From a virus (lineage: Duplodnaviria; Caudoviricetes): 64,000 nucleotides of DNA. Where the stretch lies: positions 128,001 through 192,000 of the IMG/VR virus record IMGVR_UViG_3300044620_001883; one strand, given 5' to 3'. The notes under the pieces are model-generated. The model saw only the letters and a program-made list of their open reading frames with translations. It was not told where the DNA came from and ran no database searches. The translations under genes and the position numbers were made by a program. Positions 2,344-46,831 of this stretch are shown in pieces. Position 1 is the first letter of the stretch, and every line of letters starts with the position of its first letter.

Positions 2344-5049
2344 ATGTTGTCCCTGCTCGCCCCACCCATCGTCAAGTCCTCGAGTGCCCTCCCGGTTCTC
2401 GAACGGGCGGCAGGCAAGATCCAGGATGCCGTGGACCCTGCTCCGCTCGAGAAGGCCCCCGCGACGGCCCGTCCTGAATCCAAGAGGCACCGGGAGGCTT
2501 TGGTGGATGAAGCAAGGGTGCGGCACTACCAGGACCAACCTTTCAGTACATCTGCCATGCTAGGTGGTGGGCTCGGTTTGAGTGTGCCGTGGGTGCTGGC
2601 TGCCATCATGGCTCCCAAGATGTACCGGAATAATGCCGACATTGGTAGGCTGGCACAGCTCTCGGCAGCCGGTGGGCTAGTCGGGACCGGGACAGGTCTG
2701 GGTGCTGAAGCACTAGGACGCCTCTTGACCCGTGGGTTCGGTCCCAATTTCAAACCTTCGCAGTGGCACCGGGACCAGGATCCTCACCGCTGGAACAGTG
2801 CACTCCGGACTGCCCCCATCGCGGTGGCCACGCTGGGTGGTAAAGCACTGTCGACCATGTTTCGGGAGATGCACAAGGATGCCAGCAACGACCAGGATCT
2901 TCGGAGCCGTATCGCAGCTGCGTACAAGCAGGTCACAATCCCTGACCTGAAGGCCATCGAGCACGGTCAGTACCAGAAGGGTCACTTCTCCTGGAAGGGT
3001 CTCGGTATCACGATCGAGTCTGCCCCTGGTGCAGTGCGGCGTGGGGTCGATAAGGATGGGACGGAGTGGTCCGTGAAGCTCAAGAATGCCTACGGGTACA
3101 TCAAGGGCACCACCAGCGCAGAACCCGGTGACCAGATGGATGTCTTCATGGGTCCACATCCCGAGAGCGAGATCGTGTTTGTGGTGGACCAGAACAAGCA
3201 GAAGACCAAGACCTTCGATGAACACAAGTGCGTCGTAGGCTGCCGTACTGTTGCTGAAGCGAAGGAGCTGTACATCAAGAACTACTCGGAAGGCTGGACC
3301 GGCTTCCGGGACATCACACCCATGACGCTACCCCAGTTCAAGTCATGGCTAAAGAAAGGGGACATGACCAAGCCACTGGCCGGGCAGCAGTTCCAGGATT
3401 TCCACAAGCAGGCCACAAATTCGCTGGTCAACATTCTACCAAGCTCAGATATTTCCATCATGCACACTAGCCTCACACCCGCCCCCTGGACCAAGCAAGC
3501 CATCAATCTCAAGGGGGTCCTTCCTGCTCTCAAGGGCATGTTCAGCCGCACACCAGGTGCGGTCGGTGCGACTGAGGGGGCTACTGCAGCGCCGGCCGCG
3601 GAGAAGCTCCGAAGCTTCCTAGCTGGCGGAGGCAACCTGCGACCAGGGGAGTACGAGCGCGTTGCCCTGCAGCACCCGGAGCTCATGGCTGAGTTCCCTC
3701 GCATCCGTGATGCCGTGAATCTGGCTGACGTTCGGCGGATGATCGGCACTGGTCCTATTCCTGGCGCGTTTCAGGGGGGTGTTGGTAATCAGGTAGCACA
3801 GACGCTGATCGGTGGTGGAGCTGGTGCGGGGCTTGGTCTCGCTGAAAACAGTTTCACGGACATGGGACCGGACATGCAGAAGAACAACCTGATTGCCAAT
3901 ACGGCCTTAGGTCTGTTGGCAGGCAACCCAATCGCGCGGCAACGTATGCTCAAAAAGGTGTTCACGGATCCTGCTACTGGTCTCCGGAACATTGGGTACA
4001 ACCCGAAGGCCTTAATGGGTGCCAGTACAGGCCTCATCGGCAAGACATCCCTGCTGCTTGGTGGTGATAAACTGTTTGGTACTCTTGACAACCTGCGAGC
4101 CGGTACAGGCAAACTCACCAGCACCGCGACCAAGCTCGATTCCAAGATGGACAAGGCTGAGAACAGTATTGCCAAGAACTTCAAGGAGCCGTTCGAGAAG
4201 TTGGAGAATTCTTCCAAGGAGCTGGGCGGCAAGCTGATGGACTCAGGCTCTAAGTTGATTGCTGGAGGCCGCCCGTATGTTGGGGGCATTGGTGGTGCAT
4301 TCCTGGGCAATATGGTAGGCCAGTACTTCGAGGACGAGAAGCGGGTCTCTGCCGAGGAGGCCAAAAGACAGAAGCGCAATCGTATCCTGCTCACACTGCT
4401 CGGCGGCGCTGCAGGTGCAGGACTCGGATCGGCCGACCAGAACACTCTCCCGGATACGCTTCGCCGTCTCCAGGGTGGTTGGCAAACAGCAAAAGGTACG
4501 GCAGCAGATCTGTACAACAAGGTGACCAAGCAGGCCAATCTGGAGACTTCATTACCAGACGCTCTGAAACTGTTCGGCGTAAACTCCGAAGCCGCCACAC
4601 CAGATACTGTGGCGGCTCTCAAGGAACTTGCTGTACTTTCGCAAAGCTCAGATCCTAGAGCGGCTGTGCATGCAGCATGGGCTGTTCCCACAGTCGAACG
4701 TGCCGTTGCGATGCCGCTTGGCGGTGCCGCACTTGGTGGAGCCGCTGGTGGATTGATCCAGATGCTGCGCGGGCACGGTGTGCGCGATAAGAAACGTCGA
4801 CCTTCTGTTGGTGCTGGAGTTGGTTGGGGTGGGGTAGCAGGTGGGTTGCTTGGTGTCCTGGCTGCCGCCGACGCACCACGCCAGGGCTGGAATGCTTCCC
4901 CAATGGGGCGTGCCATTGGCACCGTGCCGCTATCAGATGGTTTGAGGACCTACTGGCGGATGCTGAGCGGTAACGGTGCCGACACCGCCATCGAAGATGC
5001 TTTGAACGCCGCTGCGATCAATAAATGGATACCGAAACTGGCGCCATGA
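2344..5049 (+). CDS. large putative virion internal/ejection protein with an inorganic pyrophosphatase-like (InPase) domain and Gly-zipper helices
   Basis: ITIESAPGAVRRG..W..K..YGYIKGT..GDQMDVFMG..VFVVDQ..FDEHK matches the InPase domain of polyvalent phage proteins; several GGxxGxxxG segments; three KQA motifs. Confidence 0.65.
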   Translation: MLSLLAPPIVKSSSALPVLERAAGKIQDAVDPAPLEKAPATARPESKRHREALVDEARVRHYQDQPFSTSAMLGGGLGLSVPWVLAAIMAPKMYRNNADIGRLAQLSAAGGLVGTGTGLGAEALGRLLTRGFGPNFKPSQWHRDQDPHRWNSALRTAPIAVATLGGKALSTMFREMHKDASNDQDLRSRIAAAYKQVTIPDLKAIEHGQYQKGHFSWKGLGITIESAPGAVRRGVDKDGTEWSVKLKNAYGYIKGTTSAEPGDQMDVFMGPHPESEIVFVVDQNKQKTKTFDEHKCVVGCRTVAEAKELYIKNYSEGWTGFRDITPMTLPQFKSWLKKGDMTKPLAGQQFQDFHKQATNSLVNILPSSDISIMHTSLTPAPWTKQAINLKGVLPALKGMFSRTPGAVGATEGATAAPAAEKLRSFLAGGGNLRPGEYERVALQHPELMAEFPRIRDAVNLADVRRMIGTGPIPGAFQGGVGNQVAQTLIGGGAGAGLGLAENSFTDMGPDMQKNNLIANTALGLLAGNPIARQRMLKKVFTDPATGLRNIGYNPKALMGASTGLIGKTSLLLGGDKLFGTLDNLRAGTGKLTSTATKLDSKMDKAENSIAKNFKEPFEKLENSSKELGGKLMDSGSKLIAGGRPYVGGIGGAFLGNMVGQYFEDEKRVSAEEAKRQKRNRILLTLLGGAAGAGLGSADQNTLPDTLRRLQGGWQTAKGTAADLYNKVTKQANLETSLPDALKLFGVNSEAATPDTVAALKELAVLSQSSDPRAAVHAAWAVPTVERAVAMPLGGAALGGAAGGLIQMLRGHGVRDKKRRPSVGAGVGWGGVAGGLLGVLAAADAPRQGWNASPMGRAIGTVPLSDGLRTYWRMLSGNGADTAIEDALNAAAINKWIPKLAP

Positions 5050-5735
5050 GCAAAGTCTCACACATCAAGGTCTCAACAGCTCTTCTAGGTAAGGCACTAA
5101 ATGGAGTCTCGAAGGTCTTGACCCAAACAGGTAAGACGCTCCAGCAAGGCGCTCGCTTCGGGGCAGGAGTCCCGGCAGGTGAAACCTTCGCACCTTCGAT
5201 CGGTACTGCCGCGCGTCGTGTACTGAAGCTCGGTTTTAACCCGCAAGTCAAGGGTTGGTGGAACGTACCGAAGCGGATAGCACAAGGTGCGGGCGTCTAT
5301 GGTCTGGGTGCTAGTGTTGTGCAGGGTCGTGAAGCTGTCAAGGACTTGGCCCTGAATGCCAACCAATTGCTCCCACCGCATGAGAAACTTCAACCGTTGA
5401 AACAGTACACACAGGACCTGGCCGAGTCCCCAATCTGGACCACACTCAGGACAGCCATCATGGGTCTCCCCGAAACAGTTCCAGCTGGGCAGCGTGCGCT
5501 GCTCGGCAACGCTACTTACATTGCTGGTCGGAACGGGGTGGCTGACTGGTGGAACAATCTTGGTCGCGCTCCAGCGGCAACGGGCCCAGGGACTTGGCTT
5601 CGGCACGCCTATGCACCTGCTGTAGCACCTGCTGTCCAGGGTGTCCGAAGTGTACTGCCTAATATCCCACACGCGCCACCTAGCGCCTACGGGGATCTGT
5701 TCCGCTCTGCCCAGCAAGCTGTACGGGAATGGTAG
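5046..5735 (+). CDS. putative virion internal protein with N-terminal HIKVS tag
   Basis: ATG 5046 overlaps the previous stop; Ala/Gly-rich; SHIKVSTALLGKA. Confidence 0.55.
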   Translation: MSKVSHIKVSTALLGKALNGVSKVLTQTGKTLQQGARFGAGVPAGETFAPSIGTAARRVLKLGFNPQVKGWWNVPKRIAQGAGVYGLGASVVQGREAVKDLALNANQLLPPHEKLQPLKQYTQDLAESPIWTTLRTAIMGLPETVPAGQRALLGNATYIAGRNGVADWWNNLGRAPAATGPGTWLRHAYAPAVAPAVQGVRSVLPNIPHAPPSAYGDLFRSAQQAVREW

Positions 5736-5758
5736 AGTACGATGTTGCACGCCAAACA

Positions 5759-5788
5759 TTGACCCGCTCACCATCTCTGCGTAACAGT
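5759..5788 (+). promoter_or_regulatory. sigma70-like promoter (leaderless)
   Basis: TTGACC-N18-AACAGT, ATG 7 nt downstream. Confidence 0.5.
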
Positions 5789-5795
5789 ACTCATC

Positions 5796-6131
5796 ATGGA
5801 CCTACCCCCTTCTGTTCCTTCTGCTACTGATATTGATGCGCAGCATCTTGGTTACCTGGCCGTCGCAATGACGTTCGGGGCGCTCTCGGCTATGGCGGCT
5901 CTCCTGGGATCTGAGAGCCCTCTGACACCGCGCGTCGTGATGGCCTACCTACTTTCAGGCGGCCTCGCTGCTGGTGGTGTCGTATTGGTGCTTGTGGAAC
6001 AATACGGCTTCAATTATTTTCTGTGTGGGATCGGGATCTTCGCGGGCTACAAGGCCTTCGATCTCCTGGCCATGATCAGCATGGCCGTCTCCAGCTTCGT
6101 TAACAAATTCCTCTCCAAAAAAGGCCAATGA
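5796..6131 (+). CDS. holin-like membrane protein
   Basis: 111 aa, about three hydrophobic segments, basic C-terminus KFLSKKGQ. Confidence 0.55.
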   Translation: MDLPPSVPSATDIDAQHLGYLAVAMTFGALSAMAALLGSESPLTPRVVMAYLLSGGLAAGGVVLVLVEQYGFNYFLCGIGIFAGYKAFDLLAMISMAVSSFVNKFLSKKGQ

Positions 6132-6733
6132 GCATTCTCGATCGCATGTCAAACCGCCGGCACTCCCTTGCGTCACTGCTTCACGCCACTCTGATATTTG
6201 TGGCACTGGGCGCGGCCATTCTGTTCTTCTACGAACAGCAGCGTTCAGAACATCTCGCGGCGCAGTTCAGAACTGCTGTGCGTGGGGCAGGCGCGGGACA
6301 GTGGTATTGGGACATTGAAAAAAACATCCTCAGATGGGATGACCGCATGTTCGAGTTGTTCCATTGCAGCAAGGCAGGCTGGGAGAACGTGGACGGCATT
6401 TGGGAATGGCGCGGATCTGCGACAGACGAGCCGGCCGCCAAGTTTGTCTCGACTCTGTACAAGGAGGATGTGCCGATGGTTATGGCAGCGTTACAGCGGG
6501 CGATCATGACGCGAAGCTCTTACCAGGCGGTGTTCCGGGTGGTGGGCACGGACGGCATCGTGTACTTCCTGAGAGCAGGTGGAGCGGTCTACGGGGGCGG
6601 CAGATACATGACCGGATTGTGTATACGGTTCTCTGCCGCCGACAAGCCCGGTGAGCTGGATATCAGCCACTGCTTTGAAGCGTGGCAGAACCACATGGCG
6701 CACGCGACTGAACTGGCTGGGTCGGCGCCCTGA
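6128..6733 (+). CDS. membrane-anchored stand-alone PAS (PAS_3-like) domain protein
   Basis: N-terminal TM, then GAGQWYWDIEKNILRWDDRMFELF...LYKED...YQAVFRVVGTDGIVYFLRAGG; no kinase or cyclase domain. Confidence 0.7.
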   Translation: MSILDRMSNRRHSLASLLHATLIFVALGAAILFFYEQQRSEHLAAQFRTAVRGAGAGQWYWDIEKNILRWDDRMFELFHCSKAGWENVDGIWEWRGSATDEPAAKFVSTLYKEDVPMVMAALQRAIMTRSSYQAVFRVVGTDGIVYFLRAGGAVYGGGRYMTGLCIRFSAADKPGELDISHCFEAWQNHMAHATELAGSAP

Positions 6734-6740
6734 ATTCTGG

Positions 6741-6769
6741 TTGCGCACACAGGGAGGCATGGTGACCCT
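6741..6769 (+). promoter_or_regulatory. sigma70-like promoter (leaderless)
   Basis: TTGCGC-N17-GACCCT, ATG 6777 7 nt downstream. Confidence 0.45.
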
Positions 6770-6776
6770 ATCCAAC

Positions 6777-7049
6777 ATGGAAGCCAGCCAATCACCCACA
6801 TCTCCTGCGATGCACCGCATACCAGTCGGTGGGGCTGAACCTTTCCACTGGGCCCATGGTGGGTGCTGGTGCTTTCCGCTACAGCATTACTGTGAGGAAG
6901 CGCAGGCCACCTACATGCTCCACAACGCGCAGGATTGTCGGGAGGCATTTGAACGGCAGGGGCTCGATGATCCAACCAGACCCTGGGTTGCTGTCCTGGG
7001 TTATGTGGGAACTCCGGTTGACGTACCCAGCACAGTAATGGCAACGTAG
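6777..7049 (+). CDS. hypothetical protein
   Basis: 3' part of the 6651-7049 frame; start chosen from the promoter position. Confidence 0.5.
   Translation: MEASQSPTSPAMHRIPVGGAEPFHWAHGGCWCFPLQHYCEEAQATYMLHNAQDCREAFERQGLDDPTRPWVAVLGYVGTPVDVPSTVMAT
7018..7047 (+). promoter_or_regulatory. sigma70-like promoter (leaderless)
   Basis: TTGACG-N18-CAACGT, ATG 8 nt downstream. Confidence 0.45.
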
Positions 7050-7055
7050 TCGCAT

Positions 7056-8123
7056 ATGAGTCTAGCCCCCTGGTTCCACAAACAAGCTGGCGTTGGTGAG
7101 AGTGCCTTCAAGGCCCCCACTGCGGCGGCAGCCCCAGCGGCTTCAAATCCAGCGACGGCGCCGACGACACCAGCGGCGACACCGGGTGCAAGTAAACCCC
7201 CAGCAGCGACTCCTTTGGGTTCGGCTCCACCTCCGGCACCACAGGCTCCTTTGGGTGCGTTGCCCCCTTTACCCCCTCCCCCATTAGGTGCTGGTGCTCC
7301 ACTTCCTGACCCGTGGGGCGGTGGAACTCCAACCAGCACACCACCGCCGGCGGCACCTGTGGGTTCACTCCCGCCGTCAACCCTGGGAGCTGGAGACTCT
7401 GGAGGTACACCGTCACCTTCATATCCTGCTGCTTTGGGCGACCCAACCAAGACCACAATGCCGCCACCAGCCCCCGCCTTGGGGGGTGACACCTCATCTG
7501 TCCCGCCTGCCGCATCTCCTCCGGCTCCGGGTGGAACACCTCCACCCTCCCAGGTTCCTTCTGGTCACGAGTTTTCCACGATACCGGGCGCCCCAGGACC
7601 GGACGCCAAAACGGCATTTCCAGCAGACAGCCCGGAAGGGATCGCGGAACGAACTCGGCCTGGTGTCCTGCAGGATCGCGGCCTCGTCGCAGGTCCAACA
7701 GCTCCCCAGCAGATGGACCAACAACAGATGGACAACGCTGTTGGGAATTTGACAGCCGGAACTGGCTTCAACGGCAGTGCTACTTCCATGAAACCCGAGG
7801 ACGTGATGGCGCGCGCTACTGCCATCAATGACAAGTACCGGAAAGACAACCCAACGTTTGCAGCAGCCAACCCACATCCGGACGACCCGCGCAACAAGGT
7901 GGCCCACATCCAGGTCAGCACCCATATTCTCAAACGTGCGGCAGCAGTACCTTCCGTGGCTGCCGTGTCCTCCACCAAGCCTCCCGTGGGGCCGGTGATC
8001 CTGAACCCGAAGTTCCTGAGGGCTCTGCCCAAGCAGGCTCCAGCCAAACCCCCGGCGAAGCCAGCCAAGGATCCTGAACCCAAACCGGTTCCTGGTGCGG
8101 TCAAGAAAGCAGCTTGGTATTGA
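7056..8123 (+). CDS. Pro/Ala-rich disordered putative virion internal protein
   Basis: Low complexity; WFHKQAG, HIQVSTHILKRAAA and VKKAAWY motifs. Confidence 0.6.
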   Translation: MSLAPWFHKQAGVGESAFKAPTAAAAPAASNPATAPTTPAATPGASKPPAATPLGSAPPPAPQAPLGALPPLPPPPLGAGAPLPDPWGGGTPTSTPPPAAPVGSLPPSTLGAGDSGGTPSPSYPAALGDPTKTTMPPPAPALGGDTSSVPPAASPPAPGGTPPPSQVPSGHEFSTIPGAPGPDAKTAFPADSPEGIAERTRPGVLQDRGLVAGPTAPQQMDQQQMDNAVGNLTAGTGFNGSATSMKPEDVMARATAINDKYRKDNPTFAAANPHPDDPRNKVAHIQVSTHILKRAAAVPSVAAVSSTKPPVGPVILNPKFLRALPKQAPAKPPAKPAKDPEPKPVPGAVKKAAWY

Positions 8124-8148
8124 CTAGTACTCGCAGGGCCGGGACATT
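8120..8148 (+). promoter_or_regulatory. sigma70-like promoter (leaderless)
   Basis: TTGACT-N17-GACATT, ATG 5 nt downstream. Confidence 0.55.
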
Positions 8149-8153
8149 CCAGT

Positions 8154-8474
8154 ATGCCTGACGCCTCCAAACCTCCCAGCTGGATTGCCATGATCGGTGG
8201 CACGGTCATGGGGTTGTTAACCGGCAGCCTGACCATGTACACGTGGTTGGAGCACCGTATCGAGAGTAGGGTCGAAGCAAAGGTCATGATCGAAGTCAGG
8301 ATCTCGGCTATTGAGGCTGCCCTGAAGACCAACAAGGATGCAGCCTGGCTCGCGGATGAGAACCTCGTGAAGCGACTCGATATCCAGCAGGAGCGAATTA
8401 CACAACTGGTCAGCAAGATCGATGGACTGCACGTGACCGTCACACCAAGCGCAAGTTCAACTACACCCCCATGA
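8154..8474 (+). CDS. single-TM coiled-coil membrane protein (holin-like candidate)
   Basis: WIAMIGGTVMGLLTGSLTMY TM followed by a heptad-rich helix. Confidence 0.5.
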   Translation: MPDASKPPSWIAMIGGTVMGLLTGSLTMYTWLEHRIESRVEAKVMIEVRISAIEAALKTNKDAAWLADENLVKRLDIQQERITQLVSKIDGLHVTVTPSASSTTPP

Positions 8475-9088
8475 TGTACAAACAGGCAGGACCAGTACAG
8501 TTGCTTGGCAAGTTGCTTGGGCGTGCAGCGCCTGCCGCGAAGGGGTTGGGGTCCTTCGAACGCTACCCTGCCTTGATGGCTGCGCGCCGCAAGACGATCG
8601 TGATCCCCAATGCTCGCGCCAGCTCGTTTCCAGGTCCTGACACTTGGGGCCAGTACCGTCCCAAGGATGACCTACTGCTAGTGCGCGGTGGGCTTTCGCC
8701 GACTGTAGCACGACAATCACTGCGGCACGAGCTTACCCACATGGCCCAAATCAAGGCACCACACACCTGGCTGGACAGAACTGTGCAGGCCGGCATATCT
8801 CAGCCGGGTAATAGCTTCAAGTCAGGCCTACGCAGCATCCTGGCTGAGTTCGGTGCCCGCACTGGAGAGACCAAAGGCCTGATGGCTCCTGTCAGAGGAG
8901 CATTGAAGTTGTGGGAGACCGCACCGTCCTATGCACGAGACTTCAAACGGTTGGGTGCCCGCGCGGCGGCCCTGCCGTACCAACTCCTGACTGCAGCCCC
9001 TATTGTCGGCGGACTGGCAACGGCAGGTGGTTTGGGTCTAAAGCTCAAGAGCCTGACGGACCAGCTCAACCAACCTAAGACACGATGA
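8471..9088 (+). CDS. putative Zn metallopeptidase (HExxH)
   Basis: LLLVRGG...SLRHELTHMAQ; N-terminal MYKQAG. Confidence 0.55.
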   Translation: MMYKQAGPVQLLGKLLGRAAPAAKGLGSFERYPALMAARRKTIVIPNARASSFPGPDTWGQYRPKDDLLLVRGGLSPTVARQSLRHELTHMAQIKAPHTWLDRTVQAGISQPGNSFKSGLRSILAEFGARTGETKGLMAPVRGALKLWETAPSYARDFKRLGARAAALPYQLLTAAPIVGGLATAGGLGLKLKSLTDQLNQPKTR

Positions 9089-9129
9089 AGCCAGAGGCAA
9101 AAACACTTCCGCACGGTTTCTGACAAAAC

Positions 9130-9158
9130 TTGCAGAGTGTCCCGCTTGTTGCGACAGT
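9130..9158 (+). promoter_or_regulatory. sigma70-like promoter (leaderless)
   Basis: TTGCAG-N17-GACAGT, ATG 9164 5 nt downstream. Confidence 0.5.
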
Positions 9159-9163
9159 TGAGG

Positions 9164-9781
9164 ATGGCAACGCCGTTTCAACTTCTCTCTCACGTCAAAC
9201 GCGCAGGCGCGACCCCTCCCCCACCGGAAGGTAAACAGTACGACCTGCCCGTTCCGATCCCTCCAACATCCAAGACGGACAAAACCGTAGCAGCCTTGCC
9301 GCCTGGTAAGCAGTACGCGTTGCCGGTTCCGCCAACCCCGCAAGCCCCTACGCTTGCATCACCCATCCTGACACGCTCAGGACAACCAGCTCCGGCAGGT
9401 TGGGCACCTCCCAAACAGGAACTCCCACCCGTGCCGGTTCCTGCGGAGGTGCGGCAGGGTCTACCATCATTCGGGCAGTGGTTACAGTCGCGCGCGGTCG
9501 ATCTGTCAACAATGTTGGTCCCGTACCAAGCGCAGATCAATCAGGTCTTCGGACACAAGCAAGCTTCCCACATCCGCGTCAGCTCGTACTTGCTCAAGCG
9601 CGCGACCCTCGGAGCAGCAAAGTCCGTAGCTGGACAGCAGCCGGGACTCGGAGGGCATTTGAAGCAAGCGCCTAAGATGTTCCAACCACCCGCTGCACCG
9701 ACCGCTGTGCAGCCGACCCAGCCAACAGCGCCTGACTTCAAGATCAAAGCTCCTGCCGGGATCGCGGCAGCACGAGGCTAA
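9164..9781 (+). CDS. Pro-rich putative virion internal protein
   Basis: Internal duplication GKQYxLPVP; HVKRAG and HKQASHIRVSSYLLKRA motifs. Confidence 0.55.
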   Translation: MATPFQLLSHVKRAGATPPPPEGKQYDLPVPIPPTSKTDKTVAALPPGKQYALPVPPTPQAPTLASPILTRSGQPAPAGWAPPKQELPPVPVPAEVRQGLPSFGQWLQSRAVDLSTMLVPYQAQINQVFGHKQASHIRVSSYLLKRATLGAAKSVAGQQPGLGGHLKQAPKMFQPPAAPTAVQPTQPTAPDFKIKAPAGIAAARG

Positions 9782-9784
9782 TTT

Positions 9785-10792
9785 ATGAAACCGACGCACA
9801 TCCAAGTCAGTTCATACATGGTGAAGCAGGGATTGGCTAGGTGGCGTACTGCAAAGGCGTTGGCGGCTTTCATGCGCCGCCCACCAACACCGGCAATAAC
9901 GTCTAATATACATCCACCCAAGTGGGGAGATCCGACCCGCCTGACTCAGCTGCAAATAGCCAAGTCACATATGAGCTCGAACCCTTACGCACCAGCGCAA
10001 GAGATGTCAGGGCTGCTGAAGCAGGTAAACAAATTGGACGACGTGACACCGCTAGAGACACTCGGCGCAAACATGCTTCAGAATAAGCAAACTCCGGGTT
10101 CACTGTTTCGTGGAATGAGAACCTTAACTCCCAACATTGAAGCAGGTAGCTGGGTCCATGGAACTCCGTCCCCTGCTCTGGCCGCCAAGTACGGACCGAA
10201 TCGTTCAGCTCCCGCGTTGGTTGCTGAATACCAGGCAAGCCCACTTAATCGCTACAGCGCTGACTTTTTACAGGACATGGACGTCACCAAGCAAATGGGG
10301 CGTACTTGGGACAGTGTTGTTTCCGCGCTGCGTCAACCACCGAATTTGCGTGGCGATGCATTCGGCTTAGCCCGCACGAACAAGAATTTATGGGCGCGCC
10401 ACCAACTCAAGCTAGCTGACCCAAGAGAGTTGGTGACCGGCAAGGGACTGGAGCCGGCTGACAGCTGGGTACCTTGGTATGAGACCAAACTACAATCGGG
10501 TATCAACAATTTCCGCAATTGGGCATTTGTACATGACGGTAAACTGCTTCGCGTACCGGCAAATAAACAATGGCAGCACATACTGCGTAATATCACGTCC
10601 CCTGTGTACAAGGGATCGTGGGCCTCACGTATCCCGCAGGGGATGGAGCAGTTTATGGGGCGGCAGGGTTTTGAGTCAAGATTAGGTAGTGAATGGTTTA
10701 GAATTCAGGAGTACTTGCGTGGTGGGGTGGAAAAATTGAAACAGTTGTTACCCGCCCGTACGCCCCATGGCGCTGCTGCTCCCATGAAGTAA
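9785..10792 (+). CDS. putative virion cargo protein, possibly ADP-ribosyltransferase-like
   Basis: N-terminal HIQVSSYMVKQG tag; LFRGMR...HGTPSPALAAKY...VAEY weakly resembles ART core motifs. The ORF is solid; the ART call is tentative. Confidence 0.4.
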   Translation: MKPTHIQVSSYMVKQGLARWRTAKALAAFMRRPPTPAITSNIHPPKWGDPTRLTQLQIAKSHMSSNPYAPAQEMSGLLKQVNKLDDVTPLETLGANMLQNKQTPGSLFRGMRTLTPNIEAGSWVHGTPSPALAAKYGPNRSAPALVAEYQASPLNRYSADFLQDMDVTKQMGRTWDSVVSALRQPPNLRGDAFGLARTNKNLWARHQLKLADPRELVTGKGLEPADSWVPWYETKLQSGINNFRNWAFVHDGKLLRVPANKQWQHILRNITSPVYKGSWASRIPQGMEQFMGRQGFESRLGSEWFRIQEYLRGGVEKLKQLLPARTPHGAAAPMK

Positions 10793-10794
10793 AC

Positions 10795-10823
10795 TTGCTC
10801 CCCGGTCACGTCCATGCCACACT
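10795..10823 (+). promoter_or_regulatory. sigma70-like promoter (leaderless)
   Basis: TTGCTC-N17-CACACT, ATG 5 nt downstream. Confidence 0.5.
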
Positions 10824-10828
10824 AGGGT

Positions 10829-13800
10829 ATGGCCGACAAGACTAGACCAGATGTAATCGCCTTTGACCTTGATGGAACACTGGCCCTACGCCAGGAGCCC
10901 TTCAATCCGTACTCGGTAGGGGAACCCGTGGAGGCAATCTTGGACCTGGCCCTGAAGGCCATCCGGGATGGGAAGCGCACCTTGTGCTTCACGGCCCGCG
11001 CCAGTTCCAAGGATCCCAAGATGCACAGCACGGTGCGGAAGTGGCTCGATGATCACGGGTTAGAGAAGATGAAGATCACGAACATCAAGGATCCAACGAT
11101 AACCCGCTTCTACGATGACCGGGCCATCGGGGTCGTGCCAGACAAGGGCGAGCTTCTGACCAAGGTCGCGGCCGAGATGGTTCGGAAGACCAGGATGGTG
11201 GAAGTTCAGGATGACCACTGCCCACACTGTGACCACAAGTTTACCGAGAAGGGCTACCCGCGTCCTGACTTCGAACAGGCCGAGCGGGAAGGCATTGAGC
11301 CCATGGACGCTGACCAGCTGTGTCCCAACTGCCAAGGGATCGTGGATGACCCGGAGATGTCCGACGAGAGAATTGAGAACTACCAGGGCTTCGGCGGGGA
11401 ATCCATGAAGGAGATCCTGTACCAGCAGCGGGAGAAGAAGCGGGCTATCCTGGCTGCACGGCGGGCCAAGAAGGCCTCCACCTCGCCGGAGAACGTTTCC
11501 GTTCCAGGGCGAGGAGAGGAGAAGCAGGCCGCCGGGGACAAGCTCCGGAACCTGTGGGTACGTCGGGGTCAATGTCCCGAATGCGGTGGCAAGCCCAAGG
11601 ACTTCGAGTTCTTCAAGACCCACTCGAACGCGGAGTGTCGTGACTGCGGTCACAGCTTCGATGTCGATGCTGAACGTAAGAAGCAGGCTTCCTGGGACCA
11701 AGCCCAAGAGAAGTCCGCCTCAGTACAGATCGCAGGCCGTACTGGCCCGCATGGAATCCTGGAAGCCCTCAAGGCCCTGAACCTCGATGACCTCGAGAAG
11801 CAAGCCCGTGCTGACATTGCCTCCGGGAAGATCACCAAGCGTGACCGTGGGGTCAAGATGCTCAATGCCCTCGAAGGACTGCGCCGCAATGAGATCAAGC
11901 CCGAGGAGCTGATGATCAAGCGGGTGCCAGTGCTGCCACCGGCCTTCAGGCCCTTCTCGTTCCTGGGCACCACCTACATTCCCGGTGATGCCAACGAGCT
12001 CTACCAGGACCTCTTCAAGCACCGCGCCATCCATGACGAGACGCTCTCGACCCTGGGGGAAGGCGGCGCAGCCCTGACGCGCATGAATCTCCTGAATGCC
12101 ACGAGGGCCCTGTACGGTTACGGAGACCCCGTGTCCCCGAAGCTCAAGGAGCGTGGACCCTCGGGCTACTTGGACCAGATCCTCAACGAAGGGCCAAAGC
12201 ACTGCTACTCTGCAGACACAGAAATCCTGACGCGGGGTCAAGGGTGGGTGAAGTTCTCTGAACTGGAGCGTGGGGCGCAGGTGGCCACCATAAATCCCAA
12301 GACCCTGGCATTCGAATGGCAGACCCCTACGGAGTACATCGATTCAGAATACAGCGGTACCATGAAGCGGTTCGTAGTTGGTGGGCGTACAGGCAAGCGC
12401 ATGGACCTTTTGGTCACACCCAATCACCGGATGTGGACCAAAAAGCGCGACAAGAAGAATAAGATGACGGACGACAATTTGCGCACTGGTTGGTATGCGA
12501 TGCGGGCCGACGAGTTGGTCGCGCACAAAGTACGTCACTTCGCTATGGTGGGCGCAGGTGGTTGGGAGGGCTCGGTCGAACTGCCAGAGTGTGCACGCCA
12601 CTGGCCCGCTGAACTGTTTGCACGTTTTATCGGTTGGTACATTTCAGAAGGAAGCACACACGAATGTGGTACGATCGCTACAATCTGGCAGACCGAAGCA
12701 AACCCCGATTACTGCTTGGAACTAGACGCTTTGTTCCGAGACATCAGCAATGTACAAGAGGTGTCCAAAGTGAACATGCACCGGGAGGAGCCTCGCTTCA
12801 GCGGTTACGGTTGGAGCATCAAGGGATGTAGACCGTTGGTTGCATGGTTGGAACAGCATTGCGGCAAAGGTTCCAATTTCAAGCGCATACCTGCTCTAGC
12901 ACGTGATTGGAATCAGACCCTGTTGGGGTTGCTGTTCGACACCTACCTGAAGGGGGATGGCGCTAAGCGCGTTCCATGGCAGAAGCGTGCAAACGCGTCC
13001 GACAACTACCGGTTCCGTGATGCTCTTACAGATTCACATCATGCTTTCATTACCACAAGTCCAAAGCTGTTCGATGACCTGATGGAAGTAGGCTTCAAAC
13101 TTGGTATTTGTATCCGCCGTAGAAAAGAGCACCCGCATCTGTATCCAGAGCACCATGCTGAGAAGTACAATGGTGTGCTCATTGGGCGCTGGTTCGTTCA
13201 AACCGAGTCGAACGGGACAGTTCAGGATGTGCAGTACAACGGTCACATTTATTGTGTCGCTGTACCTAACGGGCTGCTTGTGGTGCGCCGCAACGGTGCC
13301 GCCGTCGTCAGTGGTAACTCCTTCGTTCAACGCCGGCTCCTTTCCAAGCCCATCGACAACGTGGGCCGCAGTGTCATCACGGTCGATCCAGACCTGGGCC
13401 TCGATGAAGTCTCGATCCCCCGTGAGATGGCCTGGACGCTCGCCGGTTCCAAGGTACAGCGGCGGCTGGCCATGATGGGCATGAGTCCCGCCCAGACCAT
13501 CAAAGCCGTGAAGGACCGTGACGCCTTTGCCAGCCGCACCCTGGAGCTTGAGCTGAAGGACACACCCTTCATCCTTTCCCGCGCTCCAGCCTGGCACAAG
13601 TTCAACGCCGTCGGGCAGTATGCCCGGATCCACGACGGTCCGCACATTGCCATCAACCCCTATATCACGGCCGGTCAGAACGCCGACTTCGACGGGGACC
13701 AGATCAACGTCTCCCTGCCGGTCCTGCCAGAATCCATCAAGGAGACCAAGGAGAAGTTGATGGCCAGCAAGATGCTGTTCTCCATCAAGAACCAGGACGA

Positions 13801-13960
13801 CGTGGTCCCGGTGCCTAAGCATGAGCAAATTTTAGGCATCTGGAATGCCAACAAACGTCCGCCTACGAAGCTGCACAGCTTCGCTTCAGGACAGGAAGCG
13901 CTTGCGGGTATGCAGAGCGGCGCTGTAAAGTTGGAGGACGACATTGAAATTCCGGACTAG
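10829..13960 (+). CDS. rpoC: RNA polymerase beta' catalytic fragment with N-terminal HAD-like and Zn-ribbon modules and an intein
   Basis: VPVLPPAFRP, LLSKPIDNVGRSVI, SRAPAWH and GQNADFDGDQ motifs; N-terminal FDLDGTLA..FTAR..YDDRA; two CxxC..CxxC ribbons. Confidence 0.92.
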   Translation: MADKTRPDVIAFDLDGTLALRQEPFNPYSVGEPVEAILDLALKAIRDGKRTLCFTARASSKDPKMHSTVRKWLDDHGLEKMKITNIKDPTITRFYDDRAIGVVPDKGELLTKVAAEMVRKTRMVEVQDDHCPHCDHKFTEKGYPRPDFEQAEREGIEPMDADQLCPNCQGIVDDPEMSDERIENYQGFGGESMKEILYQQREKKRAILAARRAKKASTSPENVSVPGRGEEKQAAGDKLRNLWVRRGQCPECGGKPKDFEFFKTHSNAECRDCGHSFDVDAERKKQASWDQAQEKSASVQIAGRTGPHGILEALKALNLDDLEKQARADIASGKITKRDRGVKMLNALEGLRRNEIKPEELMIKRVPVLPPAFRPFSFLGTTYIPGDANELYQDLFKHRAIHDETLSTLGEGGAALTRMNLLNATRALYGYGDPVSPKLKERGPSGYLDQILNEGPKHCYSADTEILTRGQGWVKFSELERGAQVATINPKTLAFEWQTPTEYIDSEYSGTMKRFVVGGRTGKRMDLLVTPNHRMWTKKRDKKNKMTDDNLRTGWYAMRADELVAHKVRHFAMVGAGGWEGSVELPECARHWPAELFARFIGWYISEGSTHECGTIATIWQTEANPDYCLELDALFRDISNVQEVSKVNMHREEPRFSGYGWSIKGCRPLVAWLEQHCGKGSNFKRIPALARDWNQTLLGLLFDTYLKGDGAKRVPWQKRANASDNYRFRDALTDSHHAFITTSPKLFDDLMEVGFKLGICIRRRKEHPHLYPEHHAEKYNGVLIGRWFVQTESNGTVQDVQYNGHIYCVAVPNGLLVVRRNGAAVVSGNSFVQRRLLSKPIDNVGRSVITVDPDLGLDEVSIPREMAWTLAGSKVQRRLAMMGMSPAQTIKAVKDRDAFASRTLELELKDTPFILSRAPAWHKFNAVGQYARIHDGPHIAINPYITAGQNADFDGDQINVSLPVLPESIKETKEKLMASKMLFSIKNQDDVVPVPKHEQILGIWNANKRPPTKLHSFASGQEALAGMQSGAVKLEDDIEIPD
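12203..13318 (+). mobile_element. intein with LAGLIDADG homing endonuclease (372 aa)
   Basis: Starts CYSADTEILT, ends YCVAVPNGLLVVRRNG..VVSGN followed by Ser; FIGWYISEG and YLKGDG blocks. Confidence 0.92.
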
Positions 13961-29817: not shown

Positions 29818-30443
29818 GCACCACCCGTCGCGAGAAAGCCCGACGACTCAAGAACGCAGAGGGTGTGATCATCTGCAGCTGTGGCTGTGGTCAGATTCCA
29901 AAGCCACCACGTCAGACTTGGTTCAGCCAGGCCTGCGTGGATGGTTGGCGGGAGAAGAATGATCCGGGGTACATCCGCCAGCAGATGCTGAAGCGCGACA
30001 AGGGGATCTGCGCTCTGTGTGGTGTCGACTGCGTCAAGATCCAGAAGACAGTACAGCGGCTGCAACACCTGCTGCGCTGCAGCCCTCCAGATCACGGTCA
30101 GCGCAAGTTCCGGGAAGGTCACAGTTACAACGGGCAGTTTCTGCGCAGCAAGTACGACAGGTGCCTGGCAATCTGGCAACGGTGGCGGCACAAGCGTATT
30201 ACAGCTGCCAGGAACCGACTGGAGCGTATCAGGGCTCAGGGTTGGAACCTGGACCGGAAGACACAATGGGATGCGGATCACATCCTACCCGTCATCGAGG
30301 GTGGGGGTCTGTGTGGTCTTGTCTCGATGCAGACACTGTGCGTACCTTGTCATAAGGAGAAAACCAAACAGCATGCAAAAGACCGGGCGCAAAGAAGGCG
30401 AGAGAGTAGTGGGTGTTTACCAGATCAAGTGCCTGGTAACTAG
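29814..30443 (+). CDS. HNH endonuclease-family protein
   Basis: RDKGICALCG...WDADHILPVIEGGG...TLCVPCH. Confidence 0.85.
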   Translation: MSTTRREKARRLKNAEGVIICSCGCGQIPKPPRQTWFSQACVDGWREKNDPGYIRQQMLKRDKGICALCGVDCVKIQKTVQRLQHLLRCSPPDHGQRKFREGHSYNGQFLRSKYDRCLAIWQRWRHKRITAARNRLERIRAQGWNLDRKTQWDADHILPVIEGGGLCGLVSMQTLCVPCHKEKTKQHAKDRAQRRRESSGCLPDQVPGN

Positions 30444-31182
30444 CCATGTCTATGTGGGCAGCTCTGTGCACTGCCTGCGGCGGTTTAAGTATCACAAGAC
30501 GCAGCTCCGAGGCGGTACGCACACCAACAGACACCTACAAGCGGCGTGGTGTAAGTACGGCGAAGCGCAGTTTGAGTTCATGATTATTAGACAGCTCACG
30601 GCTCCTTTGGGACCTGAGGTGTTGCTAACCTGTGAACGAGCCCTCTGTGTGAAGCTTAAAGCCCTTGATCCGTGCCACGGTTACAACCAACAGCAACCCG
30701 GTGCGGTGTACTGCCGTAGCACCGCTGAAGAGACCAAGCGCAAAATAGGCGACGCCAACCGAGGTAAGAAGAGAACACCAGAACAGGTTAAGCGCGCGCG
30801 TGATGCATTTTTACTGGCTACCGCGGGCAGGCCAGGTCCGAATAAAGGACGCAAGTTTGGACCCGATGTGCGACAGAAGATACGTCAAGCCCGTCTAGGC
30901 CGTCCGTCCTACACACGCAGTGCGGCGACGCTGCAAAAGCAGTCGTTAGTTTTGAAGAGCTTTTACACAACACCCAAGGGGCAGATTCTACGCGCCGCGC
31001 GCGGGAGGCCAGCGGAGCCGTGCACCAACTGTAGCTGTATCGTTAAGACACGCCGACGCGGTTTATGCGGAGCATGTAACGAGTACAAGAGGCGCACAGG
31101 GAACGCTCGACCTCCTGGAGGTTTTCCACAGGGTGGAGGCAGGCATGGGCGAAAAACCCTGGCAAAGCCGCACGCTTTGTAA
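30373..31182 (+). mobile_element. free-standing GIY-YIG homing endonuclease with NUMOD3-like repeats
   Basis: GVYQIKCLVTSHVYVGSS..RRFKYH..L..GTHTNRHLQAAWCKYG; TKRKIGDANRGKK and NKGRKFGPDVRQKI repeats. Confidence 0.88.
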
Positions 31183-35619: not shown

Positions 35620-35632
35620 GCAGTACAGGCGC

Positions 35633-35661
35633 TTGCACGAATCGAAAGTCGCCCGCATGTT
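35633..35661 (+). promoter_or_regulatory. sigma70-like promoter
   Basis: TTGCAC-N17-CATGTT, ATG 35675 13 nt downstream. Confidence 0.45.
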
Positions 35662-35674
35662 TAACGTCAACAGC

Positions 35675-38886: not shown

Positions 38887-38905
38887 GGAGCCGGAGCAAA
38901 AACGG

Positions 38906-38934: not shown

Positions 38935-38941
38935 TTGCAGC

Positions 38942-41983: not shown

Positions 41984-41993
41984 CACACCAACC

Positions 41994-43490
41994 ATGCAAC
42001 CCTCTCTTCTGCAGCGTGAATCTGGCATATCCAAGACCTTCATGGCCCATGACTGGCCAGGACTCGTGGAAGACATGTCAGGGCATCTGACGACATTATT
42101 CGAACGCGGACATATCAAGACTGCCGCGTCGGATCTGTTCAGTCGCAAGGACCTCGACGACCATGCCCCGCCGCCTGGGTACTTTATGATCCATCAGACC
42201 GTGATGGGATCCGAGGAAGGTTACGGATTCAACAACAACGGCGACAGCTACCCGGACGAGACGTTGAAGCGCGACCACCCGACATTCGTCACACACGGCC
42301 GCGTGTACCGGGAGCACCGCAACCGCGACCCCGAGAAAGCCATTGGGGTCATCAAGGCCGCGCGTTACTCGCAGAAGATGCAGCGCGTTGAACTCCTCAA
42401 GCACCTGGAGATCAGCAAAGCCGAGAAGGAGTATGAGATGGCCAAGGCAGGCAAAGAACTGCATGCCAGCATGGCCTGCCGTGTCCCGTTTGACGTGTGC
42501 TCTTGCTGTGAGCAAAAGGCCAAGTACGCAAGCCTGTACTGCAGCCACCTCAAGGAACGCATGATGCAATGGATACCATCATTCAAGAAGTATGCGCATG
42601 CCCGCAATACGATCTGCACCTTCTTCGACTCCAGTGTCGTCGAGAACCCGGCAGCGCGCGAGGCCAAGCACATCGAGTATCGATTCGGCCCGGAACTCCT
42701 GAAGGCAGCCAGCACACGTCCGTCCTTCTCCGGCGCGCAGTGGGCCGAGTTTGAAGGTGTGGATCTTTCCCAACACCTCACCATGAACCAAACCGAGACG
42801 TCTATCCTGCAGAAGCTGGCCAGCATTGAAGCATCGAACGCCCCCGACAGGTATCGGGACAACGTGTCCATGCATGGCTTCGCGAACACACACAACCTGC
42901 GGGATGAAGAGTGGGCGGCAGTGCAAAAGCTGCTGCCGGGTACATTGTTCAATAAACTGGCACGGCGGCGTGTGCTGCTGCCCTTTGATCTGTTTGCCGC
43001 GTACGCGACAGGACGCAATCCGTCCGAGATCCGGAGCGACGCGGACTTCACCAAAGCAGCCAGCATGCTTCCGGGGATTTTCCGGGCGCTGGCCAGCGCG
43101 CTTGAAGGCGGCTCCAGCGGTGGGGGTTGTGGCTGCAATCAAGAGGACATGGACATGTTCAGGGCTTCCTCCAATTCAGCCGCCGCCTTCGATCCCGGCA
43201 GCAGTGATGAGGTGGACAAGGTCATGGACAAAGCGACGGAACAGTTCAGCGCGGAGGCGGAACCGATTCGTCGTCGCGCCATTGTGATGATCACAATCAA
43301 GAAGGCGCAAGCCCGTGGTCCTGTACTTCCAGCACCGGCACCATTGGATCTTCCACCTTTGCTGTCGTTGTACGGGTTGTACAAAATAGCGGCTGTGCGC
43401 GACATGCTGCACCTCGCGCAGGACAACAAACAGGACGTCGAACACGAGCTGCTGCGATGCAGCGTTGACCAGAACTCCTTTGCACTTTAA
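41994..43490 (+). CDS. prohead (capsid maturation) serine protease with Zn-finger insert
   Basis: NNNGDSYP..TF...VYREHRN.D...IG; SMACRVPFDVCSCC...YCSH; FFDSSVVENPA; located upstream of scaffold and MCP genes. Confidence 0.8.
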   Translation: MQPSLLQRESGISKTFMAHDWPGLVEDMSGHLTTLFERGHIKTAASDLFSRKDLDDHAPPPGYFMIHQTVMGSEEGYGFNNNGDSYPDETLKRDHPTFVTHGRVYREHRNRDPEKAIGVIKAARYSQKMQRVELLKHLEISKAEKEYEMAKAGKELHASMACRVPFDVCSCCEQKAKYASLYCSHLKERMMQWIPSFKKYAHARNTICTFFDSSVVENPAAREAKHIEYRFGPELLKAASTRPSFSGAQWAEFEGVDLSQHLTMNQTETSILQKLASIEASNAPDRYRDNVSMHGFANTHNLRDEEWAAVQKLLPGTLFNKLARRRVLLPFDLFAAYATGRNPSEIRSDADFTKAASMLPGIFRALASALEGGSSGGGCGCNQEDMDMFRASSNSAAAFDPGSSDEVDKVMDKATEQFSAEAEPIRRRAIVMITIKKAQARGPVLPAPAPLDLPPLLSLYGLYKIAAVRDMLHLAQDNKQDVEHELLRCSVDQNSFAL

Positions 43491-44755: not shown

Positions 44756-45187
44756 ATGTTACCTGAAACCGCTCAACTTGCTGCTGAAGCTGCTGAAGTC
44801 GTCGCCAGTAACATGGAGGCGATCGAGATGCTCAAGCAAGCCGCACACGACGCGGAAAAGCAGGCGGCCGAAACAATTCGAGGCCTGCGCGCACGTGTGG
44901 GCGATCTCGAGGTTCAGGTCAAAGCCGCAACAGGGTTTGTGCCCAGCGACGAAGAGGTTGGCCTTGTCGCCGACCACATGGTGCGGCTGGGCTTCATTCT
45001 TGCCAACGAAAAGCAGGCAGCAGGCGCGTCGCTTCGAGCGAACCCTGCGAAACTGATCAACGTGGTGGACCGCATGGCCTCCCACATCTCATCCCCTTTG
45101 ATGGCTGCCGAGGGTTCACCCATTAAGCAGACCAACACCAAATTTGCCGGTCAGTCGGGCACCAAGGTCGCAAGCCCCTGGTACTGA
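44756..45187 (+). CDS. small scaffold-like protein
   Basis: Coiled coil; six K-x-A motifs in 143 aa. Confidence 0.55.
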   Translation: MLPETAQLAAEAAEVVASNMEAIEMLKQAAHDAEKQAAETIRGLRARVGDLEVQVKAATGFVPSDEEVGLVADHMVRLGFILANEKQAAGASLRANPAKLINVVDRMASHISSPLMAAEGSPIKQTNTKFAGQSGTKVASPWY

Positions 45188-45856: not shown

Positions 45857-46831
45857 ATGAGACCTCTAGTTATGCACACCCCAGGTGAGTGGACCGACGC
45901 TGATAACGCCGGACTGCTCCAATCCCTCACCGAAGCCCCCGATGGACCAGTCAAGCTGGCCTCCACAGGTGCTACGGACTACACCCGTGTGATTCTCCGT
46001 GAATCCTCGGTCCTCCCAGCCATCCAGGCTCCACAGACCATCACGATCGACCGCCTCAAACGCCGCACCTCCAGTGCCGGTGGTGATGTGCCTGAAATCG
46101 GCTTGGTTGAATGCGAGCGTGAACCCGGCTCCCCCGGCTCCCGCACTGTCCCGTTCTCTGCTGGTCCTGTCCAGCAGACCTACCGCGGGGAAGTGTACTA
46201 CATTCGTATCAGCACGGACGAAACTCCGGAGCTGTACAAGAACGTCGACCAGCTCGGCCTTTACCAGATGGACCTCCGTCAGGTGATCACCGACAACCTC
46301 CTCAAAGACCTCGACAACCTCGTGGACTTCCGGTACTTCCAGACCGTGAAGGACATCACCGGTTCCGATGTCGACGCTGACGGTGCCGGCGGTTATCGCC
46401 AGTATCGTGAAGTCGTGGGCGGCATCACCCGCAACACCTACCGCGAGACGCTTCGTCCGCTGCAGGATGCAACCCTCAACAACGGCGTGTTCGTCATGGG
46501 TCGTCAGACCGCAAACGACTTCCTCGGTTGGGATCGCAACGCCATCGGTGGTGACCTCGCTGAACGCCTCATGCAAGAAGGCCTGAATGCTCTGGACCGT
46601 TTCCAGATCTTCGGCGTCGCGCACGTGGCATCCATCAAGAAGACGCTGTTCCCGAAAGGTCACGTCTTCCACTTCGCTCCCCCGAACTTCCTGGGTCGTT
46701 ACTACGAATACCAGGCACCTACGGTGTACGTGAAGAAGGAACGCGACATCATCTATGTCTACGCCAAACGCAAGTATGGCTACGGCATCGGCAATGAAGC
46801 GGCAGTGGCCCGCACGGTGTTCCAGGACTAA
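45857..46831 (+). CDS. major capsid protein (HK97 fold)
   Basis: 324 aa, strongly biased codon usage, follows protease-scaffold-decoration genes and precedes a strong terminator; PVKLAS near the N-terminus. Confidence 0.8.
   Translation: MRPLVMHTPGEWTDADNAGLLQSLTEAPDGPVKLASTGATDYTRVILRESSVLPAIQAPQTITIDRLKRRTSSAGGDVPEIGLVECEREPGSPGSRTVPFSAGPVQQTYRGEVYYIRISTDETPELYKNVDQLGLYQMDLRQVITDNLLKDLDNLVDFRYFQTVKDITGSDVDADGAGGYRQYREVVGGITRNTYRETLRPLQDATLNNGVFVMGRQTANDFLGWDRNAIGGDLAERLMQEGLNALDRFQIFGVAHVASIKKTLFPKGHVFHFAPPNFLGRYYEYQAPTVYVKKERDIIYVYAKRKYGYGIGNEAAVARTVFQD

Follow-up and report, generated by a model that had tools for sequence, protein, structure and literature searches.

The window analyzed here, a stretch of 64,000 nucleotides covering bases 128,001-192,000 of the 200,255-bp IMG/VR virus record IMGVR_UViG_3300044620_001883, carries a short peptide of the form HI-x-VS in four neighbouring proteins of an uncultured lake phage (genome 98% complete, ~59% GC). 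By analogy with the capsid-targeting sequence (CTS) of phage T4, this peptide may be a tag for the loading and processing of head proteins, a reading to which we give about an even chance. It would then be a lineage-specific portable leader, carried by a few internal or ejected head proteins whose genes form a fast-changing cargo cluster.

All four copies of the tag lie within 4.8 kb (slashes mark candidate cut positions):

5061..5096, plus strand: tag copy 1, HIKVSTALLGKA, type A, ending in G-K-A, with no K-x-A
7905-7940 (7896..7940 with the upstream site), plus strand: tag copy 2, HIQVSTHILKRA, K-V-A / HIQVSTHIL-K-R-A /, with sites on both flanks
9569-9604 (9557..9604 with the upstream site), plus strand: tag copy 3, HIRVSSYLLKRA, K-Q-A / S-HIRVSSYLL-K-R-A /, with sites on both flanks
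9797..9832, plus strand: tag copy 4, HIQVSSYMVKQG, type H

They belong to the following proteins:

5046..5735 (open reading frame 5025/5046-5735), plus strand: tag host 1, ~229 aa, family not recognized, with an N-terminal type A tag, MSKVS-HIKVSTALL-GKA
7056..8123, plus strand: tag host 2, Pro/Ala-rich, 355 aa, starting MSLAPWFHKQA/G, type P tag inside the protein (residues 284-295)
9137..9781, plus strand: tag host 3, Pro-rich, 214 aa, type P tag inside the protein (residues 145-156)
9785..10792, plus strand: tag host 4, 335 aa, with an N-terminal type H tag and the blocks ARWRT, FRG, HG[ST]P and YET

The original prediction, made from the letters and reading frames of the window, had described four shared tags, N-terminal in two proteins and internal in two, three of them ending in KxA or KxG. 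All of this holds: the four translations match the predicted peptides exactly, each in frame in a plus-strand reading frame, two copies open their proteins while two lie inside them, and the three endings are KRA, KRA and KQG. The motif is specific. HI.VS occurs only four times in six frames, both in the window and in the whole genome, and HI[QKR]VS averages 0.32 per genome after residue shuffling. With a profile derived from ten tag copies, the four score E 3e-10 to 1e-9 and the next match in the genome is at E 0.1. The consensus reads HI-x-[VMI]-S-[ST]-x-h-h-[K]-x-[A], and the tag is amphipathic and basic. In the ten-copy alignment (A6) H, I and S are invariant and K nearly so, while the flanks are 20-44% identical. 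Three tag types can be distinguished: A on host 1, P inside the Pro-rich hosts, and H on host 4 in the window and on a protein with an HExxH motif in relatives. Types P and H end in K-R-A or K-Q-A/G, type A otherwise, and the internal copies of the Pro-rich hosts come directly after a K-x-A site.

Two further resemblances were seen outside the window. A Gly-rich protein of 216 aa, whose gene lies 46.8 kb upstream (G000:C1:81200-81850), begins MKHLLIPMNLPF-RINLTTFIIKRA-AGEP and resembles tag 2 (HIQVSTHILKRA-A), making it a possible degenerate fifth copy, below the noise thresholds of both the profile and the pair scores. The sole IMG/VR match to a degenerate DNA pattern of the tag (L011, PHINVSSLVLKKG) was judged a chance occurrence, because it has no preceding K-x-A and no second copy.

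Selection targets the tag peptide, not the DNA or RNA that encodes it. At amino-acid-identical positions of the ten copies, 160 codon pairs are synonymous but different against 166 identical ones, with Ser encoded by TCN in one tag type and by AGY in the others, and the RNA around the tags is no more stably folded than shuffled sequence (z -0.6 to 0.4). The codon differences that the original prediction had noticed are therefore substantial. They also make it scarcely credible that the repeated element is a nucleotide signal—for translation, RNA structure or promotion—that merely happens to be translated: two copies do stand at gene starts, and CACATC and GTC are common to all four window copies, but the other two are deep inside genes, the folding scores centre near zero, and CAC, ATC and GTC are the preferred codons at 59% GC.

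Outside the tag, all-against-all BLASTP finds the hosts dissimilar, except for hosts 2 and 3, which have in common low-complexity Pro/Ala-rich N-terminal parts and a C-terminal part consisting of the tag and 'L.KQAP' (E ~0.03). The same Pro/Ala-rich beginning and the same tag-linker-'L.KQAP' tail suggest that these two are probably paralogues. The claim that the hosts are unrelated thus stands insofar as no similarity reaches significance, but the four proteins represent three families and a probable paralogue. For host 1 the true start is most likely the ATG at 5046 (MSKVSHIKVS), since it overlaps the upstream stop codon as ATGA and the orthologues start MTSHIKVS. Searches of Pfam, PHROGs and PDB sequences gave nothing above threshold for the tag hosts, the scaffold-like protein or the protease candidate, and the AlphaFold2 model of host 4, based on an alignment of only four sequences, was unusable (mean predicted local distance difference test, pLDDT, 34).

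Relatives of the cluster were reached via protein collections and then via the contigs encoding those proteins; searches for contig loci with host 4, with the region 13970-15970 and with alignment A1 returned no relatives among viral and metagenome contigs. Homologues of host 1 (P0008-P0012) are 43-70% identical, and those at 55-70% begin MTS-HIKVSTALL or MTEPN-HIKVSTALL: the tag core is unchanged while the body of the protein averages 62% column identity. The residues that follow the tag in these orthologues are KRL, RRL or ARA, against GKA in the window. Three syntenic metagenomic loci (L012, L013 and L014) keep the same gene order, from a protein with an InPase domain to an intein-bearing polymerase, and contain three tags each at matching positions, two of the three N-terminal. 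One is on the host 1 orthologue (MTS-HIKVSTALLKRL), one inside the Pro-rich protein (GAKVA-HIHMSTYLLKRA-ATAP), and one at the start of the HExxH protein (209-218 aa), whose counterpart in the window is:

8471..9088, plus strand: 205-aa HExxH protein, putative metallopeptidase, starting MMYKQA/G, with no HI-x-VS part

The L012 and L013 orthologues of this protein, 77% identical to window 8471-9088, start MKAS-HIQVSSYMVKQA; that of L014, 76% identical, has (V)KVT-HIHISTYMVKQA in frame. The 218-aa protein of L012 starts MKASHIQVSSYMVKQA, and its residues 12-218 are 77% identical to the window protein. The comparison indicates that the HI-x-VS part was lost from the window copy. The motif itself is HELTH, and the match to Pfam DUF6782, a putative metallopeptidase family, has an E value of 0.027, below the cutoff; the protein is likely a packaged metallopeptidase. 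With host 4, whose gene is absent from the three loci, the L012 HExxH protein has only the N-terminal tag module in common (MKPTHIQVSSYMVKQG; MKPT-HIQVSSYMVKQG in host 4), on an unrelated body, and the DNA of these type H tags is ~80% identical across the tag only, between unrelated flanks. The same tag version on different bodies, together with an orthologous body that occurs with and without it, indicates that the tag is portable between non-homologous proteins. The conservation in homologous loci on which the original prediction was staked is seen both in L012-L014 and in the host 1 orthologues. Its description of the tag as modular is clearly strengthened, as the tag moves between non-homologous bodies; the carriers are a few proteins in three families.

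The surroundings of the tag are themselves mobile. A 35-residue segment follows the tag in relatives (SWSDRIRNGAADLADMLLP...HKRSS in L014, L014:2441-2743), and its window counterpart (FGQWLQSRAVDLSTMLVP...HKQAS) precedes tag 3; because the segment switches side, the Pro-rich genes (7056-8123 and 9137-9781) appear to have been reshuffled around the tag. The relatives also have a repetitive stretch between the Pro-rich and membrane-protein genes (L012:9212-9945, L013:9370-9650), which translates as LNQSYLNHLH... and is absent from the window. The cargo cluster is a rearrangement hotspot, marked in the relatives by this stretch. Could the peptide then be a recombination scar, or the remnant of an ancestral N-terminal domain, with no function of its own? 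Inserted genes, the relocated Pro-rich segment, the swapped tag, the apparent paralogy of hosts 2 and 3 and the weak similarity past the tag in two families would all fit such an origin. We nevertheless find it quite improbable: amino acids are kept while codons drift, with a switch of Ser codon class that is not expected of a DNA-level site, H, I and S stay invariant over ten copies with diverged flanks, and host 1 has diverged more in its body than in its tag.

The K-x-A that ends or brackets most copies belongs to a wider pattern. KQA occurs 40 times in the proteome where 11.9 are expected (z 8.1). Only one tripeptide is more over-represented, and KQA leads once repeat and low-complexity words are excluded. 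K-x-A sites are enriched in Q at x, in W or F at -2 and in S or A after the final A. Host 2 has 8 K-x-A against 3.4 expected, and the internal tags are bracketed by such sites in the relatives as well (K-V-A / HIHMSTYLL-K-R-A /). The sites concentrate in few proteins and are densest at window 43545-45187, 35501-40477 and 41892-43490, which includes genes of the head module:

41994..43490, plus strand: probable prohead protease with a C-terminal extension; Atlas leads S78, S77 and S80 at 0.84-0.86; 36% identical to gp222 of Salmonella phage Arash
43545..44714, plus strand: scaffold-like acidic protein with 11 K-x-A, 7 of them invariant across relatives
44756..45187, plus strand: 143-aa scaffold-like protein with 6 K-x-A sites
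45857..46831, plus strand: major capsid protein, Atlas 0.98 to phage major capsid protein clusters, with V-K33-L-A35 / S36 (45953-45964)

The larger scaffold-like protein has 11 K-x-A (5 of them KQA); the counts are 11 and 12 in the orthologues of two relatives, at 41-44% identity. In their alignment, seven of the eight invariant K have an invariant A at +2 while x varies, a pattern with a chance probability of ~3e-8 when 24 of 389 positions are invariant Ala. In the capsid protein, h-K-x-A-[SA] occupies residues 31-36 and persists in 19 homologues with identities as low as 30%, with K33 at least 90% conserved over the same range (alignment A2), which makes V-K33-L-A35 / S36 a candidate maturation site. 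A K-x-A-A-S close to the N-terminus of the protease candidate itself is conserved as well (alignment A7).

A similar distribution is found in Salmonella phage Arash (OQ632216), the nearest cultured relative found, with 25% identity in the major capsid protein and 36% in the protease candidate. As in the window, RNA polymerase and helicase genes stand among the head genes, and K-x-A-[SA] is dense in scaffold-like proteins (10 K-x-A in the 307 aa of gp220, 8 in the 255 aa of gp223, 7 in the 200 aa of gp225) and present close to the major capsid protein's N-terminus (GLVKEA/G). Published mass spectrometry covers 86.6% of that capsid protein, which is compatible with the loss of ~29 N-terminal residues but not diagnostic of it (PMC10585845). 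The KQA excess, the invariance in the scaffold, the conservation in the capsid protein and the same pattern in Arash together suggest that K-x-A is probably the cut site of the head-maturation protease in this clade; a literature search found no paper describing a K-x-A motif. An N-terminal K-x-A shows no genome-wide enrichment (21 of 254 proteins have one in their first 28 residues against ~10% expected), and the idea that each virion protein has a K-x-A leader was dropped. Nor does every K-x-A site come with a tag before it: when 484 K-x-[AG] sites were compared, the HI-x-VS trio made the three top-scoring pairs, and beyond it only two weak pairs exceed the noise.

More distant relatives show a comparable layout with another sequence. 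Host 4 is of a very rare kind: among 1.84 billion representatives, a full HMMER search recovered just three homologues, all distant (P0002-P0004). The family has invariant blocks (ARWRT, F-R-G, H-G-[ST]-P and Y-E-T), which give it the look of an enzyme, and neither Pfam nor AlphaFold2 yields a fold for it. All three homologues have a leader of 15-18 residues that ends in K-x-A right before the ARWRT block (MTKSA/IARWRT, LQKSA/VARWRT and FHKEA/SAKWRT, compared with MVKQG/LARWRT in the window), and none of the three has HI-x-VS. At one of these loci (L008), which adjoins split RNA polymerase genes, FFQLGYNLQKSA/V is N-terminal on the host 4 homologue and FFHLGRNLQKEA/S lies inside the 660-aa protein next to it, following a Pro-rich stretch. 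The two leaders (L008:722-2701 and L008:2724-3674) define a second consensus, F-[FQH]-x-LG-x-NLQ-K-x-A, and their pair score is 35 against 17 for the next pair. The L008 lineage thus appears to have the same architecture in other letters: a peptide of ~11 residues with K-x-A, N-terminal and internal on neighbouring proteins.

These observations bear on two explanations that do without loading. The tag could be a processing cassette only, an extended recognition site or exosite for the prohead protease or for the cluster's own HExxH protein, which would set the place or time of a cut, for example in activation or in the release of a small peptide. The K-x-A/G endings of types P and H, the additional K-x-A before the internal copies, the putative metallopeptidase within the cluster and the leaders of the distant homologues, which keep the position of K-x-A but not the tag sequence, all speak for it. 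We consider it unlikely, though a serious contender, as HIKVSTALL, the best-conserved part, persists in orthologues with no K-x-A after it, while most of the ~300 K-x-A sites of the proteome lack any such upstream element and the trio stands at the top of the pair scores. Twelve residues are also long for a protease subsite, and an HExxH protein that is tagged in relatives fits the part of cargo better than that of processing enzyme. Alternatively, the tag could serve another interaction, perhaps as a short strand or helix by which the cluster proteins bind each other, the RNA polymerase or a membrane complex after ejection, or could act as an N-terminal signal for a host chaperone or protease. 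The conserved small membrane proteins of the cluster, the small number of carriers and the amphipathic, basic character of the tag agree with this, and its polar-h-h-basic-h pattern may resemble ClpX N-motif 1. Such a role is distinctly unlikely in our view, since it explains neither the tie of the tag to flanking K-x-A nor the equal layout with other sequence in the distant relative.

Under the preferred interpretation, a loading and processing tag of the T4 kind, we infer packaging of the tagged proteins, a docking partner, cleavage at K-x-A and ejection in the following sequence. During prohead assembly the invariant front half of the tag (H, I, S and the hydrophobic residues) would dock the cargo to some part of the assembly core, much as the internal proteins of T4 co-purify with the scaffold gp22. 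After closure of the shell, the prohead protease would cut at K-x-A, freeing the cargo from the core and degrading the scaffold. In the Pro-rich hosts, where two K-x-A sites bracket the tag, it may be excised as a peptide of 12 residues (host 2) or 13 residues (host 3). On infection the cargo would leave the head with the DNA. The genomic context agrees with virion proteins: the cluster lies between the InPase polyvalent protein and an RNA polymerase gene with a virion-abundant homologue in Arash. In virion preparations of that phage, RNA polymerase subunits and the helicase encoded next to them rank among the proteins of highest abundance, and gp206, the RNA polymerase, has the most spectra (PMC10585845).

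Several observations weigh against this interpretation. Type A is not followed by K-x-A, either in the window or in the orthologues, which suggests that removal of the tag is not general or that the protease tolerates more than K-x-A. The prediction that the tag is cut off after loading could therefore hold for types P and H, which end at the clade's candidate cleavage motif, but hardly for type A. The RNA polymerase subunits and the InPase protein, presumed packaged, have no tag, and the carriers are few; the tag would thus not be a general loading route. Two of the four copies are internal, unlike the CTS of T4. The HExxH protein of the window lacks the HI-x-VS part that its orthologues have, suggesting that the tag is dispensable for this protein. 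In the type H families weak similarity continues ~25 residues past the tag (T-x-K-x-L-x-x-F-x-R-x-P), so the shared unit may exceed the 12-mer and form a longer N-terminal module. Arash has no HI-x-VS tag. Finally, the identification of 41994..43490 as a protease is weak: neither Pfam S77 nor S78 (PF03420, PF04586) was matched in the whole genome. The AlphaFold2 model of this protein, from an alignment of only three sequences, was unusable (pLDDT 35), and a complex prediction that paired the tag peptides (A6) and the capsid protein (A2) scored 0.01, which gives no answer and counts neither way.

A bolder proposition embraces a whole clade of RNA-polymerase-packaging phages, uncultured jumbo phages together with cultured Arash. 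It would have a new maturation code, cleavage after K-x-A, with lineage-specific address tags (HI-x-VS, F-x-LG-x-NLQ) that recombination swaps between cargo genes and, where internal, excised as free peptides of 12 or 13 residues, so that the injected proteome could be read from sequence. We regard this as doubtful, yet not far-fetched.

The genes of the cluster are all co-directional. The InPase protein is followed by host 1, two small membrane proteins, the Pro-rich host 2, a membrane/coiled-coil protein, the 205-aa HExxH protein, the Pro-rich host 3, host 4 and the N-terminal part of RNA polymerase beta'. The members not yet listed are:

2344..5049, plus strand: 901-aa InPase-domain protein of polyvalent-protein type, first gene of the cargo cluster (Pfam PF18823, E 3e-46)
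5796-6131, 6128-6733 and 8154-8474: conserved small membrane proteins
10829..13960, plus strand: RNA polymerase beta' N-terminal part, downstream border of the cargo cluster, with Zn ribbons, an intein and NADFDGD

The InPase protein matches PHROGs annotated as minor head protein, virion structural protein and DarB-like; its N-terminus is MLSLLAPPIVKSS, and that of the L012 orthologue, 71% identical, is MFSALAKIRPSKQA/TS. The polymerase gene is homologous to part of Arash gp206, and in Arash the region upstream of the polymerase gene contains no cargo cluster of this kind. The product of 10829-13960 has a fused N-terminal domain of HAD-like phosphatase type in addition to the Zn ribbons, and an intein interrupts the gene. 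Three KQA sites lie between this N-terminal extension and the polymerase part, which suggests that the extension is cut off. In L012 the polymerase gene is longer (1183 aa), with an intein of LAGLIDADG type. Elsewhere in the window, a GIY-YIG homing-endonuclease gene at 30019-31182 (PHROG homing endonuclease, E 4e-16) adjoins an HNH-like reading frame. Among 50,697 INPHARED phages, window 4001-12000 had zero nucleotide matches (BLASTN, distant mode) and host 4 zero protein matches (TBLASTN).

How does this arrangement compare with known systems? The CTS of T4 is found on IPI, IPII, IPIII and Alt and is cleaved off by gp21, the prohead protease (Mullaney and Black 1996; review: PMC9026906). It is an N-terminal propeptide of 10-19 residues on diverged cargo, with targeting determinants at the front and processing determinants at the end, and CTS-like leaders occur on other proteins in T4-related phages (PMC9026906). 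As in T4, a short peptide is common to otherwise diverged cargo (non-essential in T4) and exchangeable between bodies, in variable cargo loci; here it sits on three families plus a probable paralogue. Its front half is likewise conserved beyond what cleavage would demand, and in types P and H its end appears to coincide with the head-protease motif. The differences are these: the two tags have no sequence similarity, the cut rule is K-x-A here against [LI]-x-E in T4, two of the four copies are internal and bracketed, one type lacks the cleavage motif, and the cargo comprises three families only. Nor is the phage T4-like: it has a multisubunit RNA polymerase among its virion genes and no match to an S77 protease. 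Homology with CTS and gp21 finds no support, as neither Peptidase_S77 nor an [LIV]-x-E rule was seen and the over-represented motif is K-x-A.

In phiKZ, 201phi2-1 and SPN3US, gp175/gp245 cleave the propeptides of head and ejection proteins, and the motif is [S/A/G]-x-E or A-x-E (PMC10052503). Like phiKZ and SPN3US, the lake phage is a jumbo phage with a presumably packaged RNA polymerase, many internal proteins and a three-residue motif that is repeated in scaffold-like or propeptide regions, pointing to extensive proteolysis; the long, multiply cut N-terminal regions of those phages would fit the Pro-rich hosts. It differs in that its motif has Lys at P3 and, where theirs has Glu, Ala at P1, and one short conserved tag across unrelated proteins has not been reported for them. 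No PHROGs or Pfam link to phiKZ-like head proteins was found that would indicate membership by homology. In phage P1, DarB bears a capsid-targeting signal at its N-terminus, with no consensus among the N-termini of the Dar proteins (PMC9024508). DarB resembles our case in that an N-terminal signal loads an anti-restriction polyvalent protein into the head, and the cluster here starts with an InPase protein that matches a DarB-like PHROG; it is unlike our case in that no removal by a protease and no consensus are described, whereas here the consensus is clear and the role conjectural. In encapsulins, a short N- or C-terminal cargo-loading peptide suffices to load unrelated cargo into a shell of the HK97 fold (PMC7355545). 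Encapsulin peptides, unlike the proposed tag, bind the shell protein directly and stay uncleaved. Their flavour, which we take to be h-x-h-small-S-...-L-basic, would be similar to that of the tag. The system is closest to the T4 CTS by function and to phiKZ and SPN3US by biology, as a homologous member of neither.

What is new here is a K-x-A code in common with a cultured phage, tags that are specific to lineages, internal copies bracketed by sites, and the clean transfer of a tag between cargo genes. The K-x-A rule can be checked in cultured Arash, for which virion data from liquid chromatography with tandem mass spectrometry exist (PMC10585845). If our interpretation is true, tag and cut site would list candidate injected proteins of uncultured relatives from sequence alone, among them a putative metallopeptidase and an enzyme-like protein (host 4). 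Capsid address tags would then not be a peculiarity of T4-like phages, but would have arisen with another sequence and another protease rule in an unrelated clade of jumbo phages that inject RNA polymerase, and nature would have supplied a second design of tag for loading proteins into phage heads.

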